From Squalus acanthias (Eukaryota), in NCBI GenBank assembly GCA_030390025.1, contig CM059432.1:82586001-82650000 (forward strand): 64,000 bases of DNA. The letters run 5' to 3'. Position numbers and translations under genes: made by a program. Below, in pieces: positions 3,033 through 40,559 of this stretch. How positions within the stretch are numbered: position 1 is the stretch's first letter; each line of letters starts with the position of its first letter. The notes under the pieces are model-generated. The model ran no database searches, was not told the origin of the DNA, and saw only the letters and a program-made list of their open reading frames with translations.

Positions 3033-3064
3033 TTAGAAAGATCAAATGATTCTTATCCAAGTTG

Positions 3065-6930: not shown

Positions 6931-6987
6931 TGAAGTGGGGTGTTCTGCAGTACAGGGTGTCAGTGGCCTGGCTATTAGTGCTCCCTA

Positions 6988-16252: not shown

Positions 16253-16619
16253 CAGAGGCCGGTGTCGGGAGCAACAGGAGAGAACAGTGAGTATTTAAAC
16301 TCACTTTTGCGGGCTTTTTTTTTTTTTTTTACACAGAGGCCGGTGTCGGGAGCAACAGGAGAGAACAGTGAGTATTTAAACACACTTTTGCGGGCTTTTT
16401 TACAGAGGCCGGTGTCGGGAGCAACAGGAGAGAACAGTGAGTATTTAAACTCACTTTTGCGGGCTTTTTTACACAGGCCAGTGTTGGGAGCAACAGGAGA
16501 GAACAGTGAGTATTTAAACTCACTTTCGCGGGCTTTTTTTTTTTTTTGTTACAGAGGCCGGTGTAAGGAGCATCAGGAGAGAACAGTGAGTATTTAAACT
16601 CACTTTCGCGGGCTTTTTT
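16253..16619 (+). repeat. Five tandem 69-81 bp monomers at the presumed CR1 5' end
   Basis: Units start at 16253, 16334, 16403, 16472, 16552: CAGAGGCCGGTGTCGGGAGCAACAGGAGAGAACAGTGAGTATTTAAACTCACTTTTGCGGGC(T)n. Confidence 0.95.
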
Positions 16620-16785
16620 CAGAGGCTTACCAATCTCGCAGACCGGCGGCGGTGTTCCAGAGCCACGTCACGATTCAAAAAGTGACGCGGGCAAGAGGAA
16701 GCAGCTGATTGGGTGAGTACAGCCAGGTGAATATTTATACTACTTTATAGTTTGACAGTTAAGGTTAATAGTTTATAAAGTCATA

Positions 16786-17678: not shown

Positions 17679-17821
17679 TTAATTTTTGTGGTTATAGTTT
17701 CTACGGTCTCTGTTGTGTAGCGGGGAGTGCGAGTAAACAAGGGCCCTTGAGTATTTCATTTAATTGTAGTGTAATTAGTGGTATTGATTTGATTTAATTT
17801 AAATTAATTAAAGGGTAAGTC

Positions 17822-18771
17822 ATGACAGCACAGCTCGGCCCTGTGGCATGCTCCTCCTGCGCTATGTGGGAAATCAGGGACACTTCCTGTGTCCCTGTTG
17901 ACCATGTGTGCAGGAAGTGTGTCGAGCTGCAGCTACTGGCAGACCGCATTGTGGCGCTGGAGCTGCAAATGGATACATACTGGAGCATTCGCGATGCTGA
18001 GGACATCGTGGATAGCACGTTTAATGAGTTGGTCACACCGCAGGTAAAGGTTGCACAGGCAGAAAGGGAATGGGTGACCACCAGGCAGAGTAGTAGGCGC
18101 AGGCAGGTAGTGCAGGGGTCCCCTGTGGCCATCCCCCTCTCAAACAGATATACCACTTTGGATATTGTTGAGGGTGATGGCTTATCGGGGGAAGGCAGCA
18201 GCAGCCAACTTCCTGGCACCATGGGTGGTTCTGCTGCACAGGACGGGAGGAAAAAGAGCAGGAGAGCTATAGAGATAGGGGATTCTATTATAAGGGGAAT
18301 AGATAGGCGTTTCTGCGGCCGCAAACGAGACTCCAGGATGGTATGTTGCCTCCCTGGTACAAAGGTGAAGGATGTCTCGGGGCGGCTGCAGGGCATTCTG
18401 GAGGGGGAGGGTGAACAGCCAGTTGTTGTGGTGCATATAGATACCAACGATATAGGTAAAAAATGGGATAAGGTCCTAAAAGCTGAATATAGGGAGTTAG
18501 GAGGTAAATTAAAAAATAGGACCTCAAAGGTAGTAATCTCAGGATTGCTACCAGTGCCACGTGCTAGTCAGAGTAGAAATAGAAGGATATTTCAGATGAA
18601 TACGTGGCTAGAGGAATGGTGCAAGGGGGAGGGATTCAAATTCCTGGGACATTGGAACCGGTTCTGGGGAGGTGGGACCAGTACAAACTGGACGGTTTGC
18701 ACCTGGGTGGGACCGGGACCGATGTCCTAGGGGGAGTGTTTGCTAATGCTGTCGGGGAGGGTTTAAACTAA
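17822..18771 (+). pseudogene. CR1 ORF1: N-terminal CxxC..CxxC, coiled coil, SGNH/GDSL esterase; frameshift near 18670
   Basis: CSSC..CRKC; IGDSIIR, CLPG, HIDTND blocks; D-G-L-H motif read in a shifted frame, ending at TAA 18769-18771. Confidence 0.9.
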
Positions 18772-18928
18772 AATGGCAGGGGGTTGGGAACCTGTGCAGG
18801 GAGAGAGAGGAAAGGAAAGCATGGATAGAAACAAAAGACAGGAAGGAGAAAAGCAAAAGTGGAAGGCAGAGAAATCAAGGGTGTAAATCAAACAGGGCTA
18901 CAGTAAATAATAATTCTAAAAGGACTAA

Positions 18929-21742
18929 GTGTTAAAAAAAACAAGCCTGAAGGCTTTGTGTCTTAATGCGAGGAGCATTCGTAATAAGGTGAATGAATTA
19001 GCTGCGCAAATAGATGTAAACGGATATGATATAATTGGGATTACAGAGACATGGCTCCAGGGTGACCAAGGCTGGGAATTCAACATCCAGGGGTATTCAA
19101 TATTCAGGAAGGACCCAGGCAAAAAGGAAAAGGAGGTGGGGTAGCATTGCTGGTTAAAGAGGAGATTAACACAATAGTGAGGAAGGATATTAGCTCTGAT
19201 GATGTGGAATCTGTATGGGTAGAGCTGAGAAATACCAAGGGGCAGAAAACGTTAGTGGGAGTTGTATACAGACCCCCAAACAGTAATGCTGAGGTTGGGG
19301 ATGGCATTAAACGGGAAATTAGAGATGCGTGCAATAAGGGCACAGCAGTTATCATGGGTGACTTTAATCTACATATAGATTGGGCTAACCAAATTAGTAA
19401 CAATACTGTGGAGGAGGAATTCCTAGAGTGTATACGGGATGGTTTCCTGGACCAATATGTCGAGGAACCAACTAGAGATCAGGCCATCTTAGACTGGGTA
19501 TTATGTAATGAGAAAGGATTAATTAGCAATCTTGTTGTGCGAGGCCCCTTGGGGAGGAGCGATCATAATATGATCGAATTCTTCATTACGATGGAGAGTG
19601 AAGTAGTTGACTCAGAGACTAGGGTCCTGAATTTAAATAAAGGAAACTACGATGGTATGAGGTGCGAGTTGGCTAGGATGGATTGGGGAGCGTTACTTAA
19701 AGGGTTGACGGTGGATAGGCAATGGCAAACATTTAAAGATCGCATGGATGAACTACAGAATTTGTTCATCCCTGTTTGGCATAAAAATAAAACAAAAAAG
19801 GTGACTCAATCGTGGCTAACAAGGGAAATTAGGGATAGCATAACATCCAAGGAGAGAACATATAAATTGGCCAGAAAAAGCAGCAAACCTGAGGATTGGG
19901 AGCAGTTTAGGATTCAGCAAAGGAGGACAAAGGGATTAATTAAGAGAGGGGAAATAGAATATGAGAGTAAGCTTTCAGGGAACATAAAAACTGACTGTAA
20001 AAGCTTCTATAGATATGTGAAGAGAAAAAGATTAGTGAAGTCAATCGTAGGTCCCTTGCAGTCAGAATCAGGGGAATTTATAATGGGGAACAAAGAAATG
20101 GCAGACCAATTAAATACATACTTTGGTTCTGTCTTCACAAAGGAGGACACAAATAACCTCCCAGAGATGTCGGGGAACATAGGGTCTCATGAGAGGGAGG
20201 AATTGAATGAAATCAGTATTTGTAGGGAAATGGTGCTAGGGAAATTGATGGGATTGAAGGCCGATAAATCCCCAGGGCCTGATAATCTACATCCTAGGGT
20301 ACTTAAGGAAGTGGCCCTTGAAATAGTAGATGCACTGCTGGTCATCTTCCAAAATTCTATAGACTCTGGAACAGTTCCCATGGATTGGAGGGTAGCTAAT
20401 GTAACCCCACTATTTAAAAAAGGTGGTCGAGAGAAAACCGGGAATTATAGACCGGTAAGCCTGACATCGGTAGTGGGGAAAATGCTAGAGTCCATCATAA
20501 AAGATGTAATAGCAGAGCACTTGGAAAACAGTGACAGGATTGGACAAAGTCAACATGGATTTACAAAAGGTAAATCATGCTTGACTAATCTACTGGAATT
20601 TTTTGAGGATGTAACTGGTAGAATAGATAAGGGAGAACCAGTGGATGTGGTATATTTGGACTTTCAGAAGGCTTTCGATAAGGTCCCGCATAAGAGATTA
20701 GCGTGCAAAGTTAAAGCACATGGGATTGGGGGTCAGGTACTGACTTGGATAGAGAACTGGTTGGCAGACAGGAAGCAAAGAGTTGGAATAAACGGGTCTT
20801 TTTCCGAGTGGCAGGCAGTGACTAGTGGGTTACCGCAGGAATCAGTGCTAGGACCCCAGCTATTCACAATATATATCAATGATCTAGATGAGGGAACTAG
20901 ATGTAATATCTCCAAGTTTGCAGACGACACGCTGGGTGAGCGTGTGTGCTGTGAGGAGGATGCAGAGAAACTCCAGTATGATTTGGACAGGTTGGGTGAT
21001 TGGACAGATGCATTATAATGTGGATAAATGCGAGGTTATCCACTTTGGTGGCAAAAACAGGAAGACAGATTATTATCTGAACGGCAATAGATTGGGAAAA
21101 GGGGAAGTGCAACGAGACCTGGGTATCCTTGTGCACCAGTCACTGAAGGTAAGCATGCAGGTGCAGCAGGCAGTTAAGAAGGCAAATGGTATGTTGGCCT
21201 TCATAACGAGAGGATTCGAGTACAGGAGCAAGGATGTCTTGCTGCAGTTGTACAGGGCCTTGGTGAGACCACACCTTGAGTATTGTGTGCAGTTTTGGTT
21301 GCCTTATCTGAGGAAGGATGTTCTTGCCATGGAGGGAGTGCAGTGAAGATTCACCAGACTGATACCTGGGATGGCAGGAATGACGTATGAAGAGAGATTG
21401 GGTCGATTAGGCTTATATTCGCTAGAGTTTTAAAGAATGAGAGGGGATCTCATTGAAACTTATAAAATTCTAACAGGACTAGACAGACTAGATGCAGGAA
21501 GGATGTTCCCGATGGTCGGGGAGTCCAGAACCAGGGGTCACAGTCTAAGGATAAGGGGTAAGCCATTTAGGACTGAGATGAAGAGGAATTTCTTCACCCA
21601 GAGAGTGGTGAACCTGTGGAATTCTCTACCACACAAGGCAGTTGAGGCCAATTCATTAAATATATTCAAGAAGGAGTTAGATATATTTCTTAAGGCTAAA
21701 GGGATCAAGGGATATGGGGAGAAAACAGGGACAGGGTACTGA
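18929..21742 (+). pseudogene. CR1 ORF2: APE endonuclease plus reverse transcriptase, with several frameshifts and stops
   Basis: CLNARSI, GITETW, GDFN, SDH; NYRPVSLTS, YLDFQKAFD, FADD; C-terminal LVRPHLEYC, FFTQRVVNLWN. Confidence 0.95.
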
Positions 21743-21960
21743 ATTTGGATGATCAGCCATGATCTCATTAAATGGTGGAACAGGCTTGAGGGGCCGAATG
21801 GCCTACTCCTGCTTCTATCTTCTATGTTTCTATGTTTGACATTGTGCAACAGTTTAATTCAGTCATTTAAAGGTTGTTTAGTCTTCGGAGTGTTGTGGCT
21901 ACTAAAAATTAGTTACATTTATTCTCACAACATATAAAAGTGCTACACTTGGTTACATTA

Positions 21961-23161
21961 ATGGGGGCTGTACTGGCAGTCGACCTCGCCCTCCAGGATC
22001 TACGGCAGAGGGAGCGGAGGCAGCGAGAAAGATTGGAACATGTGACCAGAGTGAGGAGGAGGGTCATGAGGGCTCTCAACAGGAGTCCTTACCCTCCAAG
22101 GGAATTCCGACAGCACTTCTCCTACCTTCAATTCAGCGAGAAGCAGTGTATTAGAAGGCTCCGCTTCACCAAGTAGGTGGTCACAGAACTCTGCCATGTT
22201 CTGCAACCAGACCTCCAGCCTGAGATTAGGGTGACCACAGCTCTCTCAGTGGCAGTCAAGGTCACCGTCGCCCTCAATGTCTTCGCCAGCGGATTTTTTC
22301 ACTCTGCAACGGGAGATATAGGTAACATCTTGCAGTTCGCCATCCATCGCTGCATCCGGGAGGTCACAGAGGCTCTCTACAGTAGGAGAAGGGATTACAT
22401 TTCCTTCCCCATCACCAGAGAGAAGCAGGAAGAGCATGCACGTGGCTTTGCCAGGATAGCGGGATTCCCCATGGTGCAGGGCGCCATTTACTGCACACAC
22501 GTGACTTTGCGGGCACCGCATAACAATCCTGAGATCTTCCGTAACCGCAAAGACTACCACTCACTTAATGTGCAGTTGGTGTGCGACCACACACAGCAAA
22601 TTCTCAATGTCAATGCCCGCTATCCTGGCAGCAGCCACGATGCCTTCATCCTGTGCCAGACCGGTGTGCCAGCACTCTTCCAGCCACCACATCAAGCTTG
22701 CGGCTGGCTTGTCAGAGACAAGGGCTATCCGCTGTCCACCTGGCTCATGACTCCCCTCCACAACCCCAACACTCCTGCCCAGCACTCATATAATGAGAGC
22801 CATGCTGCCACCAGGAACATCATTGTGCAGACCATTGGGGTGCTCAAGCAACGGTTCCGATGCCTTGACCACTCGGGAGAGGCCCTCCAGTACTCGGCTG
22901 AGCGGGTGTCCCATTTCGATGTGGTGTGGCTGCATGCTCCACAATCTGGCCATCATGAGTGCCCAGCCTTTACCAGCAGGGATTGCAGGACCACCTCAGG
23001 AGGAGGAAGAGGAGGATGAAGAGGGGCAGGAAGAAGAGGAGCAAGAGGAAGACGAGAAGGACAAAAACGAGAAGAAACAGGAGTTATGGAGGAGGCAGTC
23101 ACTCAATCGGCCTTCCGGAAGGGCGGTCCGTGACCGCCTCATCAGACTGTGGTTCCAATGA
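21961..23161 (+). pseudogene. Harbinger DDE transposase (HARBI1-like), inactivated
   Basis: LRFTK*, GFPMVQGAIYCTHV, NRKDYHSLNVQ, YPGSSHDAFIL, RDKGY, YNESHAATRNIIVQTIGVLKQRF; in-frame TAG 22174-22176; frameshift ~22927; acidic tail. Confidence 0.95.
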
Positions 23162-23326
23162 ATTAAACCCCAGATCCCCGTTGCTCACCACATCCCCATC
23201 ATTCCATCCCTGTCGCAGACCACATCACAGCGCAAAGCTGAAATTAGACACACCACAAAATAATCCAAACTGAACTAATAAATTTATCAATAATCAGTTA
23301 ACACATATTTGCAACAATAATATTAA

Positions 23327-25189
23327 CTATTCACCCTTATTGCCTCTCGTTACTGTGCCTTTGCCTACTCTAGTGCTCCTACGAAGTGTTGGCCCAGTGG
23401 CTGCAGCAGAGCTGGTGGAAGGCTGCTGAGTGTCCGTGCGGGAGACTTCAGATGGCCTTGCAGGACGCCCTTGACCAGCTCTGGGCCTGGAAGGCCCGGC
23501 TGTAGACTGCACCACCTCAACATGGGCGGCAGCAGTCTGGGCTGGTTGGATGACGGGCAGCGACAAGGGCAATGGCGGAGTGGCAGTGGTGGGAGCAGGA
23601 ATGCTGTCATCCTGAGAGAGGGCAGCAGGTACCTGCTCCACTGACCCACTGGCAATTCCCTGGGGCAGCACCTCAGCATCCCTAGCAATCTGCTGCAGCA
23701 TAAATTGCTGGCCTGCTGCGCCACCGTGAAAGCCCCGGTCGACGGTGGTAGACCCAGCCATGATGGCAGCAGGCAGAGCTTGCGTGGCATCAAACTGAGA
23801 CTGCGTGAGAGCAGTCTGAGATTGAATGGCACCAACCATAGACTGCATTACAGCACTAAGACGTTGCGTCACTTCTGCCTTGCTACAATGGAAGCTGCCA
23901 GATCGCCCATCACACGCGGCATCAAGTCTGGGTCACCACGGTCTCTCTGGGAGTCTACCATCCTTTGCAGACTGGAAATTTTGGGCTCCATGGTGTACGC
24001 AGAGCTTTGTGCAATGTTGGAGGCGGACTCCTCCATACTTCTTACCATTGCCGTCAGGCTCTCGGGTACCTTTGCCATTGCACCTATGATCTCCGTGTGC
24101 ATGACCATCACTCTTCTTCTAGAGGCCTCCCCATAGAGGTCCTCATCTGAGTCCTGTGCTGCAGAACTCGCCCTCCGGGGAGCTGGCTCCTGAGCTACCC
24201 TTTCCCTCTGGCCTTGCTGCAGCCCGCTTGTTCCCGGTGCCTCACGCTGTGCAGATCCCGCTACCATACTAGCCTCTAAAGAACACGTAGTGCCAGTATC
24301 TGAGCTGGTGCCTGCGGGTGAGATATGCAGTGATGTGGTGTGTTCTTTCTCCTCCTCTTCTCCCGCCTCGCTCTCAACGGTGCCCTCAGGTACAGGCTGC
24401 TCAGGTGCTTGCTCATTACCTGAAAGCATAAAGGTACAAGAGTCGGGTTAAGGTGAGGGGAGGGGAGCAGGAAGGGAGAAAGGCATGCATACAGCATGAT
24501 TAGCTGGAAAGTGCGAAAGGCTTGTGGGGTGAGGGGGAAGTGGGATGAACATACTGTTGTTGTCCCTAAGGGGGTCAAGGTCGCCAGTGGCCACGGCGCC
24601 CACCACCTGGCGCCCAATAATCTCCAGCATTCTATTTTCCAGCGCAGATTGTGGTTGGGTGTCGGCTTGTCCCCCGCCTGTGCGCTCCTGCTCCCTCCTG
24701 TTGTGAGCCACCTTGGCCTGCAAGAGAAAGGAAAGTGTGTGTGTGAGTGTGGAGCAATGTGTTTGGGTGATGTGCCTGCCATAGTTGAATAGCTGTCATT
24801 GTGTGCAAGGTGTGAGATGTGGGTGTGAGTGTTGGTAGGTAGAGATTGTTGGTGGGTGAGTGCTGGGGGTGTGGTGCTTTGGCCAATGTGGCAGACTGTG
24901 GTTCAGACGGTGGTATGTAGCATTTGTAGAGGCATTGACTCACCCTGACCACCTGAGTGAGGTCGTTAAATTTCTCCCTGCACTGTGTGTGGTTCCTGGA
25001 GATGACAGTGCTGCCCGAGACATGCTGGGCAACCTCCCTCCACATGGCACGGAAGACTTGTGGTGAGGGCCTCCTGCCACTTGCCGGGTACAGCACCGCC
25101 CCCCGTCTCCCCACAGCGGACACCAACTCCTCCAATGCTTGGTCTGAAAATCTGCGGGCTCTCTCCCTGGGGCGTGGATCTGCCATCAT
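23327..25189 (-). pseudogene. Harbinger Myb/SANT-like DNA-binding protein, three exons (25189-24944, 24717-24555, 24419-23327), one frameshift ~23880
   Basis: RFSDQALEELV..MWREVA..RNHTQCREKFNDL; phase-compatible GTGAGT/TTGCAG and GTATGT/TTTCAG introns; AKVAHNRREQERTGGG after the Myb domain. Confidence 0.88.
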
Positions 25190-25257
25190 GACACCTGCTT
25201 GAGTCGTCCGGCTCCTTGGGCTTGGGCTTGGCCTGCTCCTGCTTGCTGACACTGGTT

Positions 25258-25387
25258 CACAGCCAGCAATGCTGAGAATGAGGTTCTGCAGCATCAATGA
25301 ACCTCCCCTTTAAGAACTGGAAAGAGCCTGTGACAATGATGACTTGCGATTAGATTGCACCTGATATTGGTTAGCGCTTTGAGTGTA
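25258..25387 (-). promoter_or_regulatory. 130-bp Harbinger block upstream of the Myb gene (putative promoter), copy 1 of 3
   Basis: On the - strand: GCGCTAA, CCAAT, TTCTTAAAGGGG, TCATTC; ends 69 bp before the Myb ATG; promoter role is inferred. Confidence 0.55.
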
Positions 25388-25455
25388 CTCTTTTTTGATT
25401 GGGTGGTGAAACAAATAAACTGTAACTAATATAGCTTTAAATAAAACTTAACAAC

Positions 25456-28400
25456 TTAAATAAAAATTGTGTTGGCCGGGGTGATGATGCACTCCAGTCC
25501 CCGCGGCGCCCACCGGTCGCGGAAGGCCTTGAGCGTGCCGGCGGACACCGCGTGCTCCATCTCCAGGGCCACCCGGGCGCAAACGTGGCCACGGAAGAGA
25601 GGCAGGCAGTCGGGCTGAACGACCCCCTTGACCGCCCGCTGCCTGGACCAGTTAATGGCCACTTTGGCCAGGCCCAGGAGAAGCCCGCTCCCCTCCGCAC
25701 CAGGTGACCAAAGATCAGGAGCGTGGGACTGAAGTGCATCCAAAAATCGAGGAGCAGCCCCTTCAAATAATGGAAGAGGGGCTGCAACATCTCACATTCC
25801 ATATATACGTGGAACATGGACTCCTCCAGGCCGCAGAAAAGGCAGGCGGCCTGGGAGTCCGTGAACCTACTTAAAACCATATTGCACGGGACTACTCTGT
25901 GCAACACCCTCCAGGCCAAGTCCCCAATAGAACAAGGGAGGACTCCCGCGTAGAGAGCCCTCCATTGGGGACCTCCGCCTCCACCGGACGGCAAGATGAC
26001 ACGCCAAGGCATGTCCGAACGGCAGACGAAGATGGCAAAGTGGAAAGTGTACAGGAGCAGCCCGTACAGGAAATGCCTCCGTGCAGAACTAAAAGGCACG
26101 GAGGGCATATCCCCGAGACAGCTCAAGTTGTGAGGCGCCGGTTCCCGAGAGGGGTTTCGGGGCCGGGCGCCGATGAGGAATTCCGTCCGAACGGGGGTCA
26201 GTTCCAACGGGATCGCCCCACGTGCTTGAGCCTCCTCGATACACCTAGTCAGGGCCCAGTGCCACTTTCAGCGACTCGATGGCTTTGGCTGTGCCAGCTC
26301 CACCGGCGCCATCCAGCCCGCTCCTCCGCCATCGAGCAGGTCCCCGATTCTAGTCACCTTGCCAGGCACGGCCCTGCCCTCCGCCAGCCACCCGAACCCG
26401 CTGTCGTGGAGGTGCGGATTCCTGAGCAGCGGCTCCCGAAGGACAGCCGCCACTCCTGACGGGGGAGAACTCTGTCTGCAGGCGACCTTGTTCCAGACCC
26501 ATAGCAGTTCCTGGTAGAAGACAGGCAGCTCCTGCAAGCAGGCCCGGGTACCACCCAGTTTCACAAACAGGGGCTGCGTGTCGTAATTGAGGCCGTGCAG
26601 CTGGCAGAAGAAATACATCGCCAGCGCACACCCTCTGGGAGGATCCTCGCTGTACAGGTATCTCTGCAGGGTCTGAAGATGGAAAGTCGCAGCCTGGGTG
26701 CGAAGGCACACCAGCGCCTGACCGCCCTCCCTAAGCGGGAGACTCAGAACTGTGGCAGAGACCCAGTGCTTCCTTTTGTCCCAGAAGAAGTCGATGAGCT
26801 TCTTCTGTATCTTGGCGACAAACGCAGGGGGAAGGATCAAAGTGACCAACTGGTACCACAACATGGCAGCCACCAGCTGGTTTATGGCCAGCGCTCGACC
26901 CCTGTAGGACACCACTCAGAGCAGTCCTGTCCATGACTTGCCCCTCGAGAGCTGGACGAGGGCGCCAGTCAGCTCCGCCAGGCTTAGCCGAGCGTCCAAT
27001 TTTTCAGCACCCTCTGGGCCGACCTTCGGCAGATCCTCCCACAAAACTCTGTGCGCATCCTCACTGGATGGATCTGGAGAGAAGAGAGCCCCGTAAAAGG
27101 CCCGGGCCTCCGCGCTGATGCCCAACGGATCCGAGACCAGAGATCCATCGTCGGCCAGCAGCCCCAAGAGCTGCTTACGGACTCCGTCTTTTTTCCAGCG
27201 AGCGGTGACTTTGGCCTCCAGCTCTCGCCAGTTCGCTGGCCAGGCGTCCTCAGCCAGGCTAAGGTAGACTCCCAAGTAGAGGAGGTGCGTTGTGCTCCAG
27301 GTGAAAGGTCTGAGCTCCTCCGGCAGGGAGTCCACCCGCCACTGACCCACCAGGAGTCCGGAATATTTCTCCCAATTGATCTTGGCGGAGGATGCGTCCG
27401 AATAAATCTGCTGGCATTCTCGCATCCTCCGCAAGTCGACGGGATCCGTGACCATGAGGAGCACGTCATCGGCGTAAGCCGAGAGGACGACCTGAGTCCT
27501 GTCAACTTCTTCCGCAAGAGGCGCAGGAAAGGCTCCATGCAGACGGCATATAACTGACCGGACTTGGGGCATCTCTGACGTACCCCTTTCCCAAAGTGAA
27601 GGGGCGCCGTCAAAGACCCGTTAACTTTAATCAGACACTCCGCGGCGGTGTACAGAAGTCGGATCTGGGCGAAGAAATGCGTCCCGAACCCGAATGCGTG
27701 CAGAGGCCCGAAGAGATACTCGTGATCCACCCTGTCAAACGCCTTCTCCTGATTCAGGGAAAGGAAGGCGACCGACAGACCAGCCCTCTGGGAATGGTGG
27801 ACCAGATCCCGGATCAGATGGATATTATCGTGGATGGTCCGGCCCGGGACCGTGTAGGACTGGTCGGGGTGGATCATGTGGGCCAGCACGGTGCCAAGGC
27901 GGGCAGACATGGCCCTGGCAAAGATTTTGTAATCCATGCTGAGGAGGGAGACTGGGCGCCAGTTCTTAAGAAGGCGGAGATCGCCCTTCTTGGGCAGCAG
28001 GACAACGACCGTCCTGCGCCAAGAGAGGGGCATCTCCACGTTCGCCAGACTTTCCCCCAGGACCCGCGCGTAGTCACCCCCCAAGACGTCCCAGAACGCC
28101 CTGTGGAACTCCACGGTCAGCCCGTCCAGCCCCAGGGACTTGCCCCTTGAGAGCTGGCCGAGGGCGCCGGTCAGCTCCGCCAAGCTTAGCGGAGCGTCCA
28201 ATTTCTCGGCGCCCTCCGGGCCGACCTTCAGCAGCTCCTCCTACAAAACTCTGCGCGCATCCTCGCTGGACGGATCCGGAGAGAATAGAGCCCCGTAATA
28301 GGCCCGGGCGTCCGCGCTGATCCCCTCCGGATCCGAGACCAGAGATCCGTCGTCGGCCAGCAGCCCCAAGAGCTGCTTACGGACCCCCCGTCTTTTTTCC

Positions 28401-29487
28401 AGCGAGTAGAAGAAGGGGGAGCCGCGGTCCAGGTCCCGGAGGAACTGGATCCGCGACCTCACGTACGCGCCTCGGGACCCGACCAGCTGCAGGTCCTTCA
28501 GCGCGCCCTTCTTCTCTTCGTACACCTTCCGCAGGGCCGGGTCTTCGACAACTTGACCGAGACGGGACTCCAGGTCGAGCACTTCTTTCTCCAATCGCCC
28601 GACCCGGGCCTCCCGCCTCTTGGTCGACCCCTTCGCGTACTCCTGACAGAAGACGCGGACGTGAGCCTTGCCCACGTCCCACCATAGCCTCAAGGAGGGG
28701 AAGCCCCCCTGCTTCCTTCTCCAGTCGGCCCAGAACCGACGAAACGAATCCTGGAACCGCACGTCCTCCAGCAGCAGGTTATTGAAATGCCAGTACACGG
28801 ACCCCCCCACCGCGCAGCGGAGCAAGCTCCGCCCACATCAGGTGGTGGTCCGTGCACGGCACCGGCCGCATGGAAGCCGCCGGAACGCAGGAGACGTACG
28901 CCCGGGAAAATGTAAAGGCGGTCGATTCTGGACCTTCCTCCTCCAGACCTCACGCTAGTGAAGGCGCTGCAGTCGGGATGGAGATTTCGCCAGACGTCCA
29001 CCAAGTCAAAGGACCCGACCAAGTCCCTCAACTTCTCCATCACCACCGGGCTTCGCGGGGGACCCTAATGGTCCCTCGCCTCGAGGGTGCAGTTAAAATC
29101 CCCGAGGATGATGCACTCGCCGACGTCGATGGAGCCCAGAAGAGCGGACACTTCTTCAAAGAAGTGCACTAAATGGAGCAGCACACCCCCCAGGCGAACA
29201 GTGACCTGGAGCAAGCGGCCCGACACATGCTCCTTGACCCTCAAGATCTCCGGCTGAAAATGTGGGGCCAGCAAGATGGCCACCCCGCAGGAATTGTTGG
29301 AGAGGTGACTCATGCTGACCCCTCCTTGCCACTCCAGGAGCCACGTGGCCTCGTCTCCCGGAACGGTGTGGGTTTCTTGCAGGAAGCACACCGCATACTT
29401 CCCGTCCTGAAGGACCGAGAAGTTATTAAATCTACGGCGCGCCTCCCTGCTGCTGTTGGTGTTGAAGCTGGCTATGGTTATCTTCAT
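25456..29487 (-). pseudogene. Tx1 ORF2 (copy A): APE endonuclease, RT, C-terminal CxxC..H..C; many frameshifts, deletions and one templated insertion
   Basis: MKITIASFN..FLQETH..GDFN; NWRPVSLL; AYADD; CLFCGLEESMFHVYMEC. Confidence 0.92.
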
Positions 29488-29512
29488 ATCAGAAGCATAG
29501 TGCAACCTCTAC

Positions 29513-31670
29513 CTAAACCTGACGGGGGGAGGGAGCGCAGTCACGTGACAACCACCACTCCCTCAGCAGCCCAGTGAGGAACGTTCTGAGCCGACGCAGC
29601 TCGAGCCGGCTCACGCCCTTGTCCGCGCCCATGATTTTAATGGCGGCGTGGACGGACCCGACGAGCATTGCCAGCTCCGACCACCTGTCGAGGGCCAGCC
29701 GGATTTTATTGTGACGGTCCAGGCGCTTGGCAATAAAATCCCGGAGTTCCGCAACGGGGATGAGGGGAGAGTCGGTGAGGGGCACGAGGGCATCCACCGC
29801 CTCACTGGCGATGGAGTCCAAATCGTCCCCAGTGCCCTCCACCAATCCCCGTCCTCCTCCAGGAGGTCGTCACCAGCGGCCGACCCGTCCGTCACACGGG
29901 GTGCAGCGAATGGCTCGGCCGCACCGGCCGGCCCTGCCTCTGTCCCGATCCCACCCCCAGGATCAACGGCAGAGGAGTCCTCCCTAGGCTCCTCCAGGGG
30001 CGCCGGGCCGGGAGGCAGCGGCGGTTTGGGGTCCCTCCGCCTCAGGCGCCGGGGCGTCCGGAGAAACCGGGGAGAAAACAATTCCCAGTTCCTCCAACAC
30101 GCCCGGCGCCAACGTCAGAGACAGAGTCATGGGGCCTTCCCCTTCCCTGCCACCAGCCACTGACCCAGCGGACTGGGTATTTTGATTGTATTCCTCGACC
30201 AGGTCGAGCAGTCCCTGGGAGAAATCTGGATTACAATGGGCGAGTTCAGCTTCTTCGGCCTCGCCCGCCCCAGTCCCCAGGACGCCCGACCCGGCGAGGA
30301 GTTCGGTTCCATTGATATATTTATATTATTATTTTCCGCGGGTTGTTCCGCGGCCCCCCCCCCCACCCGGGCAGGGTCTCTTCCCCATCCCCGGGAGGCA
30401 CAGGCTGGACAGACACATCTGTCTCACCCTCCCGAGGGACAGGCGACCCCTGCCGAATACTCGTGATGGTGGCGGCGGGGGGGGGGGGCGCAGCTCCCGC
30501 GGCGTGCGACGACTCCCCTTGTACAGAGGGACCTTCCTCCTCGCGGTCCTCCTCCTCTTCCAGGGAGTTGCGTCTTCTTTTTAGTCTGGAGGGACGCGGA
30601 GGGTGGGAGACCTCCATGTCTGCCGAGGCCTCCGCCTCCGCTCCCTCCTGTCGAGTGGGTTTCTTGGGCCCCTCGGGCCCGAGCCCAGCCGCAGGTCTTG
30701 ATTTTTCTGCCTTGGCAGTTGCGGTCACAGGCTCGGGCACGAGGCCCTCCCCACGCTCATATGCCGCCACTAACTCCGCAAGGAGCGCGGGTGTAAGTTC
30801 CAATAATTCGGTTTGCTCAACGAGGGGACCCGCCTTAAGGTGTTTTGTCTTCCGCCGTGCCTTCCTTCTGCCCGGACGCTCTCCCCCCCACCACCCCCCC
30901 GCCCCCGCCAGAGGCCGTGATGGCGTTGGCCTCCGACATCGACCGTGCATCCGTTGGCTTTGACGCGCGGACAGTATCAGGGGGAGGAGCGGCGGCGGCA
31001 CCAGCCCCGGCTGCACTTGATATTCTGGTGGCCTTGGAGGCGGGGCAGTTTTTCCTGATATGCCTCACCTCCTTACAGGCGTGGCACCGCACACCGTCCG
31101 ACGTCCAGAAGACGCGGTAGGCAGTCCCCTCGTGGCGCACCATAAAAGCACCGTCGGTGTCCTCCTCCCGCGCCAGCTGGACAAAAAGCTGGCGCCGGAA
31201 GGAGAAGATGTGCCGGAGGCTGGCTTCCTGGAAGCCGAGCGGGATGGGTGTAATCCCCGACCTCACCTCCCCCAGTTGACGTAGGTGGGGGAGGAGGAGC
31301 TCACCAGGAACAAAGGGCGGGACGTTGGAAATTACTATCCTTTGCGCGGTGGCCTCGAGAGGGTCCACCGGCAGGAAGGTCCCGCCCACGGTGAGCCCCT
31401 TTTCGATGGCCAGGGACACCGCCCGCTCCAACCCCAGTAAGAACACAGCCTTCCCGTACATTTTAGAGGCGGCGACGATGGCTGAAGGGCTGACAACCCC
31501 AGCCATGGCTTTAACACACGCCTCTATCGTCATGTTGGAGTGAGTGTAGCTCTTGACCCCATTTTTTTTGTAATTAACCTGAATGGTGACGGGGCAGCGG
31601 GAGCAGCTGTGGCTGCCACACCCGCGTACGTCCTCGCTGACCCCGCCACCGGCGAAGATGGGGTCGCCAT
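29513..31670 (-). pseudogene. Tx1 ORF1 (copy A): RRM-like region, CCHC zinc knuckle, low-complexity C-terminus; frameshifted
   Basis: IVAASKMYGKAVF, ISNVPPF, SFRRQ, CHACKEVRHIRKNC. Confidence 0.9.
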
Positions 31671-31890
31671 AAGTGGATTGTTCTTTCTAAGGGCTACACT
31701 CACCCCAAGTCACAGGCCTGAAGATGTTGGTTATGGCCTTGGTAGTTTTTTTTTCTCTCCCTTGAGCAGAGGGAGTTGTTAAATTGAAGGCACACCTCTC
31801 CCCTTATTGATTGAATTAGGAGAGGGGCCTTCTCCCCTCTGCTCAATAAGTAATTAATAAAATAAATTGAGGTGCCTCTCAGAGAGAGGC

Positions 31891-31940
<50 letters not shown>

Positions 31941-32630
31941 AAGGAGGGAGGCCGCAAGGGCGTGGTCACCACTCAGGATGGTGCATGGGTGGGTGTTGGC
32001 AGGGGTGCACTCTCCAATGTAAATGAAAGTCTCTGTTGGTGGTCTTCTGGTGGGGGGAGAAGATGTCTTCACCTGGGAAAGCTGGAGATACCCAGGCTCA
32101 GTCCTGCACCAGGTCTTAACGATGTTCAATATGATGTAATTAAAGTGTGGACTTCACCTAGGCAGCTCCAGCTGTCCCAGGTTTAGGCAATGAGAAGGGG
32201 TGTTTATTAGTGGTGTGTGTGGCCTAGTTTTTTTTACAAGAGCTACACACACACACCCCTTGGTGTTCCAGCCTTCTTTTCTTCTTTCCTCCCCCCACCT
32301 ACAATACAAAGTCTCTGGGAGAGTGCACCAGAAATAACACCCACCTGTAGATGTTCAAAATGATGCTGTTCCCTCCTTCCAAACAGTTGATGTTTCTTAC
32401 TGTTGGACTGTTGTGTTCTCCCCTCTCTTCTAAAATGGAGGCCAATTGGGGAGGCAGTGTTGGAAAGGCCTCTCCTCTGATGTTCTTCTTATGGGCCTTC
32501 TTTTTCTTTCTCCTCTCCTGTCCTCTCTCTCCAGGCACCCCAGCTGTTGTTGTTGTAGTGGTAGTGGTGGTGGTCTGCAATCTGGTCTCCTCCTCTTCCT
32601 GGTCAAAGAGACCTCCACTCCACTCTGCTT

Positions 32631-32757
32631 CACTGCCAGCATTGCTGAGAATGAGGTCCTGCAGCATCGATGAACCTCCCCTTTAAGAACTGGAAAGAGC
32701 CTGTGGCAATGACTTGCGATTAGACTGCACCTGATATTGGTTAGCGCTTTGAGTGTA
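32631..32757 (-). repeat. Copy 2 of the Harbinger block (127 bp), between the two Tx1 elements
   Basis: Direct repeat of 25258-25387 and 39853-39982 with a 3-bp deletion. Confidence 0.95.
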
Positions 32758-32824
32758 CTCTTTTTGATTGGGTACTAAACCAAATAACTGTAAATCAATA
32801 AAACTTTAAATAAACCTTAACAAA

Positions 32825-35800
32825 TTAAATTAAAATTTGGCAGCCCGGGGTGACGATGCACTCCAGTCCCCGCGGCGCCCACCGGTCGCGGAAAAACTCA
32901 AGCGTGCCGGTGGACACCGCGTGTTCCATCTCCAGGGCCACCCGGGCGCGAACATGGCCGCGGAAGACAGGCAGGCAATCGGGCCGAACGATCCCCTCGA
33001 CCGCCCGCTGCCTGGACCAATTAATGGCTTTCTTGGCCAGGCCCAGGAGCAGTCCTACAAGGAGGTCCTCCGACCTGCCCGCTCCCCTACGCACCGGGTG
33101 ACCAAAGATCAGGAGTGTGGGGCTAAAGTGCAACCAAAAATCGAGGAGCAGCCCCTTCAAATAATGAAAGAGGGGCTGCAACCTCTCACACTCAGTATAA
33201 ACGTGAAAGACGGACTCCTCCAGGCCGCAAAAATGGCAAGCAGCCTGGGAGTCCGTAAACCTATTTAAAACCCTATTGCACGGGACTGCTCCGTGCAACA
33301 CCCTCCAGGCCAAGTCCCCAATAGAACAAGGGAAGACTCCCGCGTAGAGAGCCCTCCATTGGGGACCTTCGCCTCCGCCGGACAGCAGGATGGCACGCCA
33401 AGGCGTGTCCGGACGGCAGACGAAGATGGCAAAGTGGAGAGTGTGCAGGAGCAGCCCATACAGGAAACGCCTCCGTGCGGAATGAAAGGGCACGGAGGGC
33501 ATTTCTCCGAGAAAACTCAAGTGGTCAGACGGCGGCTCCCGAGGGAGGATTCGGGGCCGGGCGCCGATGAGGAATTCCGTCCGAACGGAGGTCAGCTCGG
33601 ACGGGATCGCCCCACGTGCTTGAGCCTCCTCGATACACCTAGTGGAGACGGGGCCCAGTGCCACTTTTAGCGACTCGATGGCTTTGACCGTGAGTCGGAC
33701 GTTGACCCAGGACAGGCGCCTCGCCAGCTCCTCCAGCGCCATCCAGCCCGATCCTCCGCCATCGAGCAGGTACCCGACTCTAGTCACCTTACCGGGCACA
33801 GCCCTGCCCTCCGCCAGCTACCCGAACCCGTGGGCGTGGAGGTGCGGATTCCTGAGCAGCGGCTCCCGAAGGACAGTCGTCACTCCTGATGGGGGAGAAC
33901 TGCGCCTGGAGGCGACGCTGTTCCAAACCCATAGCAGTTCCTGGTAGAAGACAGGCAGCTCCCGCAAGCAGGCACGTGTGCCGCCCACTCTCACAAACAG
34001 GAGCTGCGTGTCGTAATTGAGGCCGTGCAGCTGGCGGAAGAAATACGTCGCCAGCGCACGCCATCTAGGAGGATTCTCCACGTACAGGTATCTCTGCAGC
34101 GTCTGAAGACAGAAAGTCGCCGCCTGGGTGCGAAGGCACACCAGCGCCTGACCGCCCTCCCTAAGCGGGAGACTCAGAACCGCGGCAGAGACCCAGTGCT
34201 TCCTTTTGTCCCAGAAGAGGTCGACGAGTTTCTTCTGCATCTTGGCGACAAACGCAGGGGAAGAGATCAAAGTGACCAACCGGTACCACAACATGGCGGC
34301 CACCAGCTGGTTTATGACCAGCGATCGACCCCTGTAGGACAGCACTCGGAGCAGCCCTGTCCAGCGCCCTAGGCGAGCGGTGACTTTGGCCTCCAGCTCT
34401 TGCCAGTTCGCCGGCCAGGCGTCCTCGGCGGGGCTGAGGTAGACCCCCAAGTAGAGGAGTTGTGTTATGCTCCAGGCGAAGGGCCTGAACTCCTCCGGCA
34501 GGGAGTCCACCCGCCACGGGCCCACCAGGAGTCCAGAACATTTCTCCCAGTTGATCTTAGCGGAGGATGCGTCCGAGTAAATCTGCTGGCATTCTCGCAT
34601 CCTCCGCAAGTCGACGGGATCCGTGACTGTGAGGAGCACGTCATCGGCGTAAGCCGAGAGGACGACCTCCACGCCCGGCCCTTGCGGAGCCAGTCCCATC
34701 AACCTCTTCCGCAAGAGGCGCAGGAAAGGCTCCATGCAAACGGCGTATAACTGACCGGACATGGGGCATCCCTGACGCACCCCCCTCCTGAAGCGAAGGG
34801 GCACCGTCAAAGACCCGTTAACTTTAATCAGACACTCCGCGGCAACGTACAGAAGTCGGATCCGGGCAACGAAATGCGTCCCGAACCCGAAAGCGCGCCG
34901 AGTCCCGAAAAGATACTCGTGATCCACCCAGTCGAACGCCTTCTCCTGATCCAGGGAAAGGAAGGCGACCGACAGACCAGCCCTCTGGGAATGGTGGACC
35001 AGGTCCCGGACCAGGTGGATGTTGTCGTGGATGCTCCGGCCCGGGACCGTGTAGGACTGGTCGGGGTGGATCATGTGGGCCAGCACGGTGCCAAGGCGAG
35101 CAGACATAGCCCTGGCGAAAATTTTGTAGTCCGTGCTGAGGAGGGAGACCGGGTGCCAGTTCTTAAGTAGGCGGAGATTGCCCTTCTTAGGCAGCAGGAC
35201 AATGACCGCCCTGCGCCAAGAGAGGGGCATCTCCCCGGTCGCCAGACTTTCCCCCAGGACCCGCGCGTAGTCGCCCCCCAAGACGTCCCAGAACGCCCTG
35301 TGGAACTCCATGGTCAGCCCGTCCAGCCCCGGGGACTTGCCCCTCGAGAGCTGGCGCAGGGCGCCGGTCAGCTCCGCCAGGCTTAGCGGAGCTTCCAATT
35401 TCTCGGCGCCCTCCGGGCCAACCTTCGGCAGGTCCTCCCACGAAACACTGCGCGCATCTTCGCTGGATGGATCTGGAGAGAACAGAGCCCCGTAATAGGC
35501 CCGGGCGTCCGCGCTGATCCCCTCCGGATCCGAGACCAGAGATCCGTCATCGGCCAGCAGCCCCAAGAGCTGCTTACGGACCCCCCGTCTTTTTTCCAGC
35601 GAGTAGAAGAAGGGGGAGCCGCGGTCCAGGTCTCGCAGGAACTGGATCCGCGACCTCACGTACGCGCCTCGGGACCCGACCAGCTGCAGGTCCTTCAGCG
35701 CGCCCTTCTTCTCTTCGTACACCTTCCGCAGGGCCGGGTCCTCGACGACTTGACCGAGACGGGACTCCAGGTCGAGCACTTCTTTCTCCAATCGCCCGAC

Positions 35801-36725
35801 CCGGGCCTCCCGCCTCTTGGTCGACCCCTTCGCGTACTCCTGACAGAAGACGCGGACGTGAGCCTTGCCCACGTCCCACCATAGCCTCAAGGAGGGGAAG
35901 CCCCCCCGCTTCCTTCTCCAGTCGGCCCAGAACCGGCGAAACGAATCCTGGAACCGCACATCCTCCAGCAGCAGGTTGTTAAAATGCCAGTACGCGGACC
36001 CCCCCCCGCGCGCGCAGTGGAGCGAGCTCCGCCCACACCAGGTGGTGGTCCGTACACGGCACCGGCCGCATGGAAGCCGCCGGAACACAGGAGACGTACG
36101 CCCGGGAAATGTAAAGGCGGTCGATTCTGGACCTTCCTCCTCCAGACCTCACGCTAGTGAAGGCGCTGCAGTCGGGATGGAGATTTCGCCAGACGTCCAC
36201 CAAGTCGAAGGACCCGACCAGGTCCCTCAACTTCTCCATCACCGCTGGGCTTCGCGGGGGACCCTAACGGTCCCTCGCCTCGAGGGTGCAGTTAAAATCC
36301 CCCCTGAGGATGATGCACTCGCCGGCGTCGATGGTGCCCAGAAGAGCGGACACTTCTCCAAAGAAGCGCACTTGCTGCGCACCGGTCTGGGGGGCGTTCA
36401 CGTCCACTAAATGGAGCGGCACGCCCCCCAGGCGAACAGTGACCTGGAGCAAGCAGCCCGACACATGCTCCTTGACCCTCAAGATCTCCGGCTGAAAATG
36501 TGGGGCCAGCAAGATGGCCACCCCGCAGGAATTGTTGGAGAGGTGACTCATGCTGACCCCTACTTGCCACTCCAGGAGCCACGTGGCCTCGTCTCCCGGA
36601 ACGGTGTGGGTTTCTTGCAGGAAGCACACTGCATACTTCCTGTCCCGAAGGACCGAGAAGTTATTGAATCTACGGCGCGCCTCCCTGCTGCCGTTGATGT
36701 TGAGGCTGGCTATGGTTATCTTCAT
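32825..36725 (-). pseudogene. Tx1 ORF2 (copy B): APE endonuclease, RT, zinc finger; few frameshifts (~36265-36050, ~33810)
   Basis: MKITIASLNINGSR, LQETH, GDFN, RIDR, TDHH; SLDQEKAFD, GVRQGCPMS, AYADD, YLG; CHFCGLEESVFHVYTEC. Confidence 0.95.
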
Positions 36726-36750
36726 GTCAGAAGCGTAGTGCAACCTCTAC

Positions 36751-38870
36751 CTAACGGGGGGAGGGAGCGCAATCACGTGACGACCGCCACTCCCTCAGCA
36801 GCCCAGTGAGGAACGTTCTGAGCCGACGCAGCTCGAGCCGGCTCACGCCCTTGTCCGCGCCCATGATTTTAATGGCGGCGCGGACGGACCCGACGAGCAG
36901 CGCCAGCTCCGACCACCTGTCGAGGGCCAGCCGGATCTTGTTGTGACGACCCCGGCACGTGGCCATAAAATGCCGGAGTTCCTCAACGGGGATGAGGGGA
37001 GAGTCGGTGAGGGGCACGAGGGCATCCACCGCCTCACTGGCGAGGGAGTCCAAATCGTCCCCAGTGCCCTCCACCAATCCCCATCCTCCTCCAGGAGGTC
37101 GTCACCAGCGGCCGACCTGTCCGTCGCACGGGGTGCAGCGAACGGCTCGGCCGCACCGGCCGGCCCCGCCTCTGTCCCGATCCCACCTCCAGGATCGGCG
37201 GCAGAGGAGTCCTCCCTGGGCTCCTTCAGGGGCGCCGGGCCAGGAGGCGGCGGCGGTTTGGGGTCCCTCCGCCTCAGGCGCCGGGGCGACCAGAGAAACC
37301 GGGGAGAAAACAATTCCCAGCTCCTCCAACACGCCCGGCGCCAACGTCAGAGACGGAGTCAGGGGGCCTTCTGTCTCCCCGCCACCAGCCTCCGACCCAG
37401 CGGACTGGGTATTCTTATTATATTCCTCGACCAGGTCGAGCAGTCCCTGGGAGATGTCTGGGTCAGAATGGGCGGGCTCAGCTTCTTTGGCCTCACCCGC
37501 CCCAGTCCCTAGGACGCCCGACCCGGCGAGGAGTAACGGTTCCGGTGCTTGGTCAATGTTCTTATTTTCCGCGGGTTGTTGCGCGGCCCCCCCCACGGGC
37601 AGGGTCTCTTCCCCATCCCCGGGAGGCACAGGCCGGACAGACTCATCTGTCTCACCCTCCCGAGGGACAGGCGACCCCCGCCGATTGCTCGCGATGGTGA
37701 CGGTGGTTGGGGGGGGGGGGGGCGCAGCACCCGCGGTGGGCGACGACTCCCCTTGTGCGGAGGGACCTTCCTCCTCACGGTCCTCCTCCTGGGAGCCGTG
37801 CCTCCTTTTTAAAGTATTGGGGCCCAGAGAGGGGGAGGCCTCCCTCTCCGCTCCCTCCCGTCGACTGGGTTTCTTGGGCCCCTCTCACCCGAGCCCGGCC
37901 GCAGGTCTTGAATTTTCTGCCTCGGCAGTTGCGGTCACGGGCCCGGGCACGAGGCCCTCCCCAGTCTCACACGTCCCCACTAAATCTGCGAGGAGCGCGG
38001 GCGTAAGTTCGGATAGTCGGATTCGCTCCCTGAGGTGTTTATTTTTCCGCAGCGCCTTCCTTCCGCTCGGACGCTCTCCCTCCCCCCTGCCGGAGGCCGT
38101 GATGGTATTGGCCCCCGACGTCGACCGCGCATCTGTTGATCTTGACGCGCGGACAGTATCAGAGGGAGGGGGTGCGGCAGTGCCAGCCCTGGCCGCACTC
38201 GATGTTGTGGCGGCCTTGAGGCGGGGCAGTTTTTCCGAACGTGACCCATCTCCTTACAGGCGTAGCACCGCACGCCGTCCGAGGTCCAGAAGACGCGATG
38301 GGCGGTCCCCCCGTGGAGCACCATGAACGCGCCGTCCGCGTCCTCCTCCCGCGCCAGCCGGAAGAAAAGCTGGCGCCGGAAGGAGAAGACGTGCCGGAGG
38401 CTGGCTTCCTGGAAGCCGAGCGGGATGGGCGTGATCCCCGACCTCACCTCCCCCAGTTGACGTAGGTGGGGGAGGAGGAGCTCACCAGGAACAAAGGGCG
38501 GGACGTTTGAAATAACTATCCTTTGCGCGGTGGCCTCAAGGGGGTTCACCGGCAGGAAGGTCCCACCCACGGTGAGCCCCTTTTCGATGGCCAGGGACAT
38601 CGCCCGCTCCGACCCCAGGAAGAACACAGCCTTGCCGTACATTTTAGAGGCGGCGACGATGGCTGAAGGGCCGACAACCCCAGCCATGGCTTTTACGCAC
38701 GCCTCTATTGTCATGTTGGGGTGAGTGTAGCTCTTGACCCTATGCTTCCTCGTAATGAGTCTAAAAGGTGACGGGGCAGCAGGAGGAACTGTGGCTGCGA
38801 CCGTGGCAGCGGCTGCCACGCTCGCATATGTCCTCGCTGTCCCCGCCATCGGCGAAGATGGGGTCGCCAT
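36751..38870 (-). pseudogene. Tx1 ORF1 (copy B); frameshifted
   Basis: MATPSSP..TYASVAA..ISNVPPF..SFRRQ..CYACKEMGHVRKNC. Confidence 0.9.
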
Positions 38871-39852
38871 AAGTAGGTTGGTCTTTAAAGGGCTACACTC
38901 ACCCCAAGTCACAGGCCCGAAGATGGTGATGGCCTTGGTAGTTTTTTTCCCCCTTGAGCAGAGGGAGCTGTTTAAATTGAAGGCACACCTCTCCCTTTAT
39001 TTGAATTAATTAGGAGAGGGGCCTTCTCCCCTCTGCTCAATGGGTACTTAATAAAATAGATTGAGGTGCCTCTTAGAGAGAGAGGCAGAGAGAGACAAGA
39101 GACAAAGAGAGAGAGAGAGAGGGGGTGGGAAGGAGGGAAGCCGCAAGGGCAGGGTCGCCGCTCAGGATGGTGGGTGGGTGGGTGTTGGCAGGGGTGCACT
39201 CTCCGATGTAAAATAAAGTCTTTGTTGGTGGTCTTCTGGTGGGGGGAGAAGATGTCTTCACCTGGGAAGCTGGAGATGCCCAGGCTCAGTCCTGCACCAG
39301 GTCTTAACGATGCCCAATAAGATGTAATTAAATTGGGGACTTCACCTAGGCAGCTCCAGCTGTCCCAGGTCAGGCAATGGGAAGGGGTGTTTATTAGTGG
39401 TGTGTGTGGCCTAGTTTTTTACAAGAATCACACTCACACACACACACACCCCTTGATGTTCCGGCCTTCTTCTTTTCCTCTTTCCTCCCCCCACCTACAA
39501 TACAAAGTCTCTGGGAGAGTGCACCAGAAATAACACCCACCTGTAGATGTTGAAGTTGTTTCTTCCTTCCTCCTTCCACACAGATGATGTTGGTTATTGT
39601 GATGTTTTTCTCCCCTCTCTCCCTCTCCTAAAATGGAGGCCAATTTGGGAGGCAGTGTTGGAAAGGCCTCCCTTCTGATGATCTTGTTCTTGGCCTTCCT
39701 TTTCTTTCTCCTCTCCTGTCCTCTCTCTCCTGGCACCTCAGTTGTAGTTGTTGTTTGTAGTGGTGGTCTGCAGTCTGGTTCCTCCTCTTCCTGGTCACAG
39801 AGACCACCACTCGCCTTCCTCTCCCTTTCCACTCTCCTGGATGAGGCAGCTG

Positions 39853-39982
39853 CACAGCCAGCATTGCTGAGAATGAGGTCCTGCAGCATCAATGAACCTC
39901 CCCTTTAAGAACTGGAAAGAGCCTGTGGCAATGATGACTTGCGATTAGACTGCACCTGATATTGGTTAGCGCTTTGAGTGTA
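39853..39982 (-). repeat. Copy 3 of the Harbinger block (130 bp), continuous with the Harbinger right end
   Basis: 126/130 identical to 25258-25387; continues into GCACCACT... rather than into a Tx1 3' end. Confidence 0.95.
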
Positions 39983-40559
39983 GCACCACTGAGCTAGGCC
40001 ATTAGCGCTTGATTTAGCACTCCAATCCTTTCTTTGAGTGATGATACTTAATTTTGCGTGCAGTGAGATTCATTAGCGTCTGGCGCTAAATCTCAAACTT
40101 TTCTGAAGTTACCGCCCATTCCTAGGCTATAATGAATTTCTACCCCTTACTGTTTTGTACAGTCACTAACAAGGAGATTCTCAGATAATGAGCTGCTCCA
40201 GTCATATGAGCTCACTTTCAAGCATGTACAGTAATTGGAAAGCCTTTTCATAAGACACCAACAGCACAGTCTCTTAGCTAATCAGTAAAAGATATGTTGA
40301 ACCTGTTTAGCCTGACTTGTATAAATGAGAGGATTTGCCATTCCCAGATCTCTCGTTACAGTGCAGGAGACCTCCTCGACCAGTTCTTTAAGGGTTCCAA
40401 ACTCATTATAATGTGCACACTGCTATTTTGATAATACCTGCATTTGGGATTCAAACTGATGCTCATTATGTATACTACAAAACAAGTGTTTTTTCCCTTA
40501 TTATTTATGGTAATTATTTAACATGTGTGGATTTTAGTCCTTGTGGACTGAGTCAGTTG

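Follow-up and report, generated by a model that had tools for sequence, protein, structure and literature searches.

A Tx1L-like LINE of Squalus acanthias that prefers a Harbinger site and may copy a promoter-like segment on insertion

A stretch of 64,000 nucleotides from Squalus acanthias (GenBank assembly GCA_030390025.1, contig CM059432.1, positions 82,586,001 to 82,650,000 of the forward strand), referred to here as the window, raises the question of how two long interspersed elements (LINEs) of the Tx1 clade came to be joined to a PIF/Harbinger DNA transposon at one and the same base. The sequence-only reading of the window had described the two elements, our copies A and B, as lying head-to-tail and co-oriented with the Harbinger Myb gene, and its coordinates and junctions are borne out: on the minus strand both 3′ ends (25388/25387 and 32758/32757) run from AAAAGAG into TACACTCAAAGCGC with an identical join base. 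The Harbinger sequence at these joins is a 130-bp segment, S, which is present three times in the window (J1 to J3), and the minus strand reads, from the Harbinger terminus at 40146, 164 bp, S, Tx1 B, S, Tx1 A, S and the Myb gene. The junction at 39982, which had been taken for an unoccupied one, does read GGTGC joined to TACACTC, but it is actually the 5′ copy of a 130-bp duplication. Our results suggest a probable explanation for this layout, in which a full-length Tx1 entering S copies the local S to its own 5′ end and would gain a promoter by doing so.

Copies A and B are 86-89% identical, with 37 and 5 gap openings. In a within-genome tree of 83 Tx1 copies, built from 590 bp of open reading frame (ORF) 2, they match each other at 89.4% and rank 41st and 65th among the 82 other copies; A falls in an older group, and the 3′ end of B has relatives of 97-98% identity at other genomic loci. 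They are by this comparison independent insertions, as the sequence-only reading had argued from their divergence. J2 and J3 are 96% identical, and the variants G103 and A119 occur together in 2 of 119 distinct S copies, namely these two. Since J2 and J3 alone share this pair, A was inserted first, and B then entered the S copy at the 5′ end of A and duplicated it through at least S119. The 5′ end of B begins with a Harbinger-derived leader whose Harbinger subfamily differs from that of the host.

Both copies span ORF1 and ORF2 and are full-length in that sense, as had been claimed, but stops and frameshifts break both, and the longest open stretches are 776 aa in B and 418 aa in A. Pfam finds the domains zf-CCHC, Exo_endo_phos, RVT_1 and zf-RVT, and the architecture of the Tx1 clade is present: two ORFs, a zinc knuckle in ORF1 and, in ORF2, an apurinic/apyrimidinic-type (APE) endonuclease, a reverse transcriptase (RT) and a C-terminal zinc motif. 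A Tx1 copy elsewhere in the genome (L279) retains an open ORF2 frame of 1273 aa that is 50% identical over its full length to the Xenopus TX1 149 kDa protein (Tx1L; 1335 bits); human L1 ORF2p scores 274 bits only, so the nearer characterised relative is Tx1L and not L1. The partial protein matches of highest identity are from a shark (73%) and a ray (68%). Copy A also holds a private 268-bp duplicate (26935-27202) of its own 28137-28406 region, within ORF2.

The next question is how strongly the family is tied to the Harbinger site. Our unbiased sample was drawn from the first 100 places with a Tx1 3′ region, all on contig C1, of which 98 were covered; with three duplicate or overlapping loci dropped it comprises 96 ends in 90 loci. 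The Harbinger S site accounts for 8 of the 90 loci (9 of the 96 ends, one of them partial) and a palindromic repeat for 7 loci (8 ends). Seven ends lack a recognisable terminus, and an exact TACAC follows 52 of the other 89. Where the duplication could be resolved (52 sites), it measures 13-16 bp in 49 cases. The motif T^TACAC[C/T], with a preference for T at +11, comes from 33 dispersed sites that had been chosen beforehand for a TACAC-like start. If the genome holds about 1.0 million TTACACY sites (from 40 in 146 kb) and 2470-10,000 Harbinger sites, the motif alone predicts a Harbinger share of 0.2-1%, and the observed enrichment is, as a rough figure, 9-37-fold. On the 83-copy tree the Harbinger-site copies form no clade and are scattered among dispersed TACAC copies, and the share of 8/90 loci or 9/96 ends stays under Kojima's threshold for target specificity (more than 20% of flanks in one repeat; PMC4494074). 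The Harbinger site is, on sequence grounds, a hotspot of a motif-specific Tx1 family, below that 20% threshold. The sequence-only reading had proposed a family that targets Harbinger. The preference stands, with 133 exact junctions besides the 8 of 90 loci, whereas site-specificity does not: 82 of the 90 loci, and 27 of the 29 closest relatives of B, lie elsewhere, and a majority of unrelated 3′ flanks is what that reading had itself named as evidence against its proposal. As to pairing of the 3′ RNA with the target, 71 duplications were compared: position 1, which the match left unconstrained, differs in 7 of them, and the other positions in 0-4.

Other TACAC insertions were noted along the way. 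Three independent truncated copies (L015, L026, L029) occupy one TACAC site of another repeat; in L015 it is immediately preceded by a Harbinger transposase, 41% identical to that of the window, and forms a second Harbinger hotspot. One copy (L305, G000:C16:46233600-46235700) has entered a second Tx1 copy, at a TACAC within the ORF1 of the latter. A more distant Tx1 group (L128, L133, L214, L230, L258, L262, L269) has another 3′ end, in several cases followed by TCAGCA.

S is Harbinger sequence: all 27 other top-match loci (28 rows; L032-L060 without the window's own L056) are empty, as are 30 of 30 copies selected by pattern. In the 3.71-Gb genome the 18-base Tx1/S junction is found at 118 places and its reversed control at none, and 28 of the first 30 of these junctions have Harbinger on at least one side. 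Exact patterns give lower bounds, some of them swollen by segmental amplification, of at least 2585 Tx1 3′ regions, at least 133 Tx1-to-S junctions and at least 2470 intact Harbinger sites. One junction, followed by TACACTCATCTG, has 188 matches, mostly on small contigs (e.g. G000:C31, C196, C273) and often as 313-bp pairs; this is passive amplification inside a larger repeat.

Insertion at this one nick has two outcomes. Among the first 30 of the 118 exact junctions there are 20 loci where a truncated copy has a visible 5′ end, and at 19 of them the duplication is about 11-15 bp long. The pattern used for the 5′ ends of full-length copies is blind to the upstream flank, and its 29 matches comprise 27 Tx1 5′ ends, one duplicate and one empty Harbinger. 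Among these 27 ends with a Harbinger-type leader, 23 (at 15 loci) have the whole of S, two of them later damaged, and four start at S101-104; a full S at a non-Harbinger site was found in none of the 27. At L283, one of the four, the target is an unrelated LINE, with a duplication of 12-14 bp at both ends and only S101-130 of the segment. L065/L284, which had been considered a non-Harbinger site, was dropped as a Harbinger site with a replaced 5′ flank.

The source of the 5′ S can be read from its variants. When S1-100 at the 5′ end of 13 full-length loci outside the window is compared with 73 S copies, the locus's own 3′ S is the closest of the 73 in 11 of 13 loci, or in 10 of 12 without an identical array. 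Subfamily-diagnostic and private bases are duplicated alike, and L288 carries host-specific sequence to about S150. As judged from these shared variants, the long duplication is shown to have been copied, over about 125-150 bp, from the local target, although its exact crossover is blurred because the Tx1 leader is itself Harbinger-derived. Transport of S15-130 in the RNA was rejected on the same ground, that the 5′ S1-100 is closest to the local 3′ S. An array on contig C19 (G000:C19:33340371-33382981; L285-L287) contains at least six full Tx1+S units at a spacing of about 7.09 kb and 98.7% identity; its units share one endonuclease deletion and are a true tandem amplification, unlike the window.

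The segment copied in this way resembles, in its sequence words, the core promoter of the Harbinger Myb gene. It has CCAAT at 18, TTAAA at 75-79 and an initiator-like word from 104, ahead of the Myb ATG at S202, and S55-125 is well conserved across 30 empty copies. These words strengthen the earlier guess of a promoter site. The distance from a TATA element to the start of transcription follows a textbook rule, and the four partial leaders (S101-104) start 26-29 nt downstream of the TATA-like TTAAA. If the RNA does start near S104, the S15-103 ahead of full-length copies could not come from the RNA, in agreement with the local-copy result. In the window J1 leaves the Myb gene with an intact S. 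Contigs of four RNA runs hold pieces of both elements in three organisms; such contigs cannot show a start, and among the pieces listed none spans S and the Tx1 leader over enough letters, so they speak neither for nor against the proposed start.

We therefore consider it probable that this Tx1L-like LINE follows a promoter-copying cycle at the Harbinger S. The endonuclease nicks T^TACAC[C/T], with a 13-16 bp duplication as the usual outcome, and this motif stands at the upstream edge of S, where the site is used roughly 9-37 times more than the motif predicts. LINE RNA would be made from the duplicated Harbinger promoter, starting near S104 (as four copies suggest) and carrying some 30-45 nt of Harbinger leader. 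On the downstream side of the nick lies the homologous S104-150, with which the end of a full-length cDNA could then pair; copying from there as far as the nick would take S1 to about S125-150 from the local host, the step for which local copying was found. The new Tx1 copy would gain a promoter that was never in its own RNA, while the Harbinger Myb gene would keep its own. Each long duplication would also make a fresh TACAC target, which would account for head-to-tail stacks, and Tx1 copies landing elsewhere would mostly be truncated or promoterless dead ends.

A concern for this cycle comes from two young clades of the same family. The first 30 of 431 matches to a 5′ untranslated region (UTR) pattern, which is biased toward young copies, place 20 full-length 5′ ends in the palindromic repeat and 7 within a CR1-type LINE, in its 5′ region; 3 carry S. 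Of the 30, 29 lie within one of three host repeats, in contrast to the dispersed majority of truncated copies. The palindrome clade (13 copies) and the CR1 clade (5 copies), with supports of 0.78 and 0.99, are young and nested among TACAC and Harbinger copies; within each, more than 20% of flanks fall in one target, in samples as small as these. Some of their leaders retain a Harbinger remnant and others carry about 57 bp of the new target instead. The CR1-type target is confirmed in L123/L124, where the GDSL ORF1 begins about 285 nt past the junction. A changed endonuclease was considered as the cause of the target switch: that of a palindrome-clade copy (L291) is near-identical to those of Harbinger-site copies, and that of a CR1-clade copy (L292) has a few changes near the hairpin, one copy having been compared for each clade. 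The young clades support a dependence on the flank, yet they also show that this family can prosper without S, which speaks against the proposed cycle.

Palindrome-clade copies (L144, L291, L195-L201; G000:C1, C2) are inserted at CAACACCAGG in a short palindromic repeat, often in near-identical 7.2-kb tandem arrays, with duplications of 16 bp or about 57 bp. The repeat may resemble Penelope-like termini, and a Penelope/hammerhead origin is conceivable; Rfam searches of L144, L291 and L222 gave sub-threshold hairpin matches only. CR1-clade copies (L121-L124, L182-L188, L292, L300) share the junction motif (T/G)AAG(A/G)AGA, no clear duplication was seen at L292, and truncated members also occur in another repeat (L223, L227, L264).

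Several further observations weigh against the promoter-copying cycle. Promoter activity and the start site are suggested by motif spacing and four 5′ ends, and both ends of the insertion were verified for L283 alone: L284 is the Harbinger site with a replaced 5′ flank, the flanks of L297 are mismatched, and the 3′ end of L295 was not found. One full-length class begins at about S130-136, which leaves an internal promoter possible. The one exception among the 20 truncated loci, L102, is a truncated array with a 127-bp duplication and no full-length element. In the local-copy comparison the own flank ranked 3rd at L275 and 2nd at L289. L285, counted among the 11 successes, is the unit of an array and its identity is trivial, and both S pairs of the window are too near the consensus to be informative over S1-100 (ranks 18 and 19). 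Lastly, the cycle offers no explanation for the advantage of the Harbinger site over other TACAC sites.

Another account is that the duplication is an incidental product of homology: the Tx1 would have an internal promoter of its own, the leader would be an ancestral relic, and open chromatin or DNA structure would make the hotspot. The success of the young clades in other repeats, where S is reduced or absent (27 of the 30 full-length 5′ ends), and a 5′ UTR of about 1 kb, which leaves room for a promoter, both fit this account. The four leaders that begin 26-29 nt past the TATA-like word do not, nor does the confinement of 29 of 30 full-length ends to three host repeats, as expected from flank dependence, and we regard it as unlikely. 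The whole of S might instead be carried in RNA from an upstream start, with the two S copies of a locus homogenised later by gene conversion. Direct repeats 7 kb apart can convert, and near-identical arrays (98.7%) exist; however, conversion would be required at nearly every locus, a full S was seen at a non-Harbinger site in 0 of 27 cases, and the partial leaders start at S101-104, which makes this very unlikely.

Two further accounts fare worse. A family strictly specific for the Harbinger site would suit the 118 and 133 exact junctions and the 28 of the first 30 with Harbinger on at least one side, but it is highly improbable given the 82 of 90 unbiased loci elsewhere and the absence of a Harbinger-site clade. 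An old tandem duplication by way of the S repeats, after one single insertion, has a parallel in the C19 array with its 98.7% identical units; the window's copies are only 86-89% identical and not nearest relatives, while J2 and J3 are 96% identical, and we find it hardly credible here.

The host of both insertions has the marks of a PIF/Harbinger element: a 3-bp TTA target duplication (15875-15877 and 40147-40149), short terminal inverted repeats alike at 11 of 13 positions, a DDE transposase and a Myb/SANT gene. It is interrupted by a tandem repeat, a related miniature element, a CR1-type LINE and the two Tx1 copies. The miniature Harbinger-like element (16786-17680) is nested in the other end of the host, next to the CR1-type LINE (17700-21838; GDSL ORF1 17819-18730, APE-RT from 19066), and TTAAAGGGG-like words lie near the ends of both. 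The main features are listed in the table.

Table. Host transposon, Tx1 copies and S segments in the window.
Feature	Position	Strand	Remarks
Host PIF/Harbinger DNA transposon	15878..40146		Left end placed through homology with copy L275
Harbinger transposase open stretch, DDE_Tnp_4	22177..23019	+	Pfam, E 6e-28
Harbinger Myb/SANT gene, first coding exon	24635..25186	-	Pfam Myb_DNA-bind_5; ATG 25186 = S position 202
Segment S, host copy J1, 3′ of Tx1 A	25258..25387	-	Putative promoter; TACAC nick site at S1; CCAAT 25370; TTAAA 25313; putative start site 25284
Tx1 copy A, older lineage, broken	25388..32630	-	ORF1 start 31670, ORF2 start 29487
Segment S, middle copy J2 = 5′ duplication of A, target of B	32631..32757	-	3-bp deletion
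Tx1 copy B, younger lineage, broken	32758..39852	-	ORF1 start 38870, ORF2 start 36725
Segment S, 5′ copy J3 = long target duplication by B	39853..39982	-	CCAAT 39965, TTAAA 39908; putative RNA start near 39879
Harbinger terminal 164 bp upstream of nick site	39983..40146	-	Terminus at 40146

The rotifer element R9 reportedly makes a long target duplication. R9 and R2 are restriction-like-endonuclease elements of ribosomal DNA that are co-transcribed from upstream; in the dogfish Tx1, unlike these, the homology would lie downstream of the nick, so that the join duplicates a segment of another transposon that resembles an RNA polymerase II promoter. In PMC3774820, target-derived sequence at the 5′ end of R2 RNA is proposed to anneal to the target, and homology-guided 5′ joining is likewise what we propose here.

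The sequence-only reading knew of no described Harbinger-targeting Tx1, but one is published: Tx1-9_AMi of the alligator, whose preferred site is about 300 bp away from the Harbinger 5′ end (Kojima 2015, PMC4494074). The dogfish element shares the Harbinger preference; measured from the terminus, its nick is at 164 bp and its full-length 5′ join at about 290-315 bp. The section on Tx1-9_AMi does not state which junction the 300 bp refer to, and any likeness would be one of described position. Beyond that description we add a motif, duplication lengths and a promoter model, although the long duplication may already be known there. Xenopus Tx1L in Tx1D is likewise inserted in a DNA transposon and has the 50% identical ORF2, but its target choice is described as stringent (PMC4494074, PMC1950540), whereas the dogfish Tx1 recognises a motif of 6-7 bases across the genome and has an endonuclease hairpin loop that lacks three residues relative to Tx1L. 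Tandem sequential insertions sandwiching a duplication are also described for SINEU/Tx1-Mar in Mariner-N4_AMi, and transcription of SINEU from the flanking DNA transposon is proposed there; the duplication in that system is 16 bp, and the section concerned does not describe promoter copying (PMC4494074). No promoter-copying Tx1 duplication was found in the literature searched, whose scope left out Repbase Reports and key subscription papers. A Harbinger-preferring Tx1 is thus already known, and the apparent promoter-copying cycle is, within that literature, the new part.

For non-LTR (long terminal repeat) elements other than L1 and R2, 5′ joining, second-strand cutting and promoter acquisition are open questions. 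In this family a single nick has two outcomes, 14 bp or 125-150 bp, according to the completeness of the copy, at dozens of natural loci, and because private variants mark the source of the copy across these loci, homology-directed 5′ joining becomes directly testable in an APE-type vertebrate LINE. The cycle also offers a testable explanation for the published preference of Tx1 elements for the ends of DNA transposons (Tx1-9_AMi, Tx1-Mar), and two recent target switches are recorded within one genome. More tentatively, and with somewhat greater doubt than confidence, the family may be a hyperparasite: a promoterless vertebrate LINE that rebuilds a borrowed RNA polymerase II promoter by a homology-directed duplication of 130-150 bp, and whose niche would be set largely by the flank carried in its RNA and not by changes in its endonuclease. 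If so, daughter lineages would be able to jump to new hosts, such as the palindromic repeat and the CR1-type 5′ UTR, with a near-identical endonuclease.

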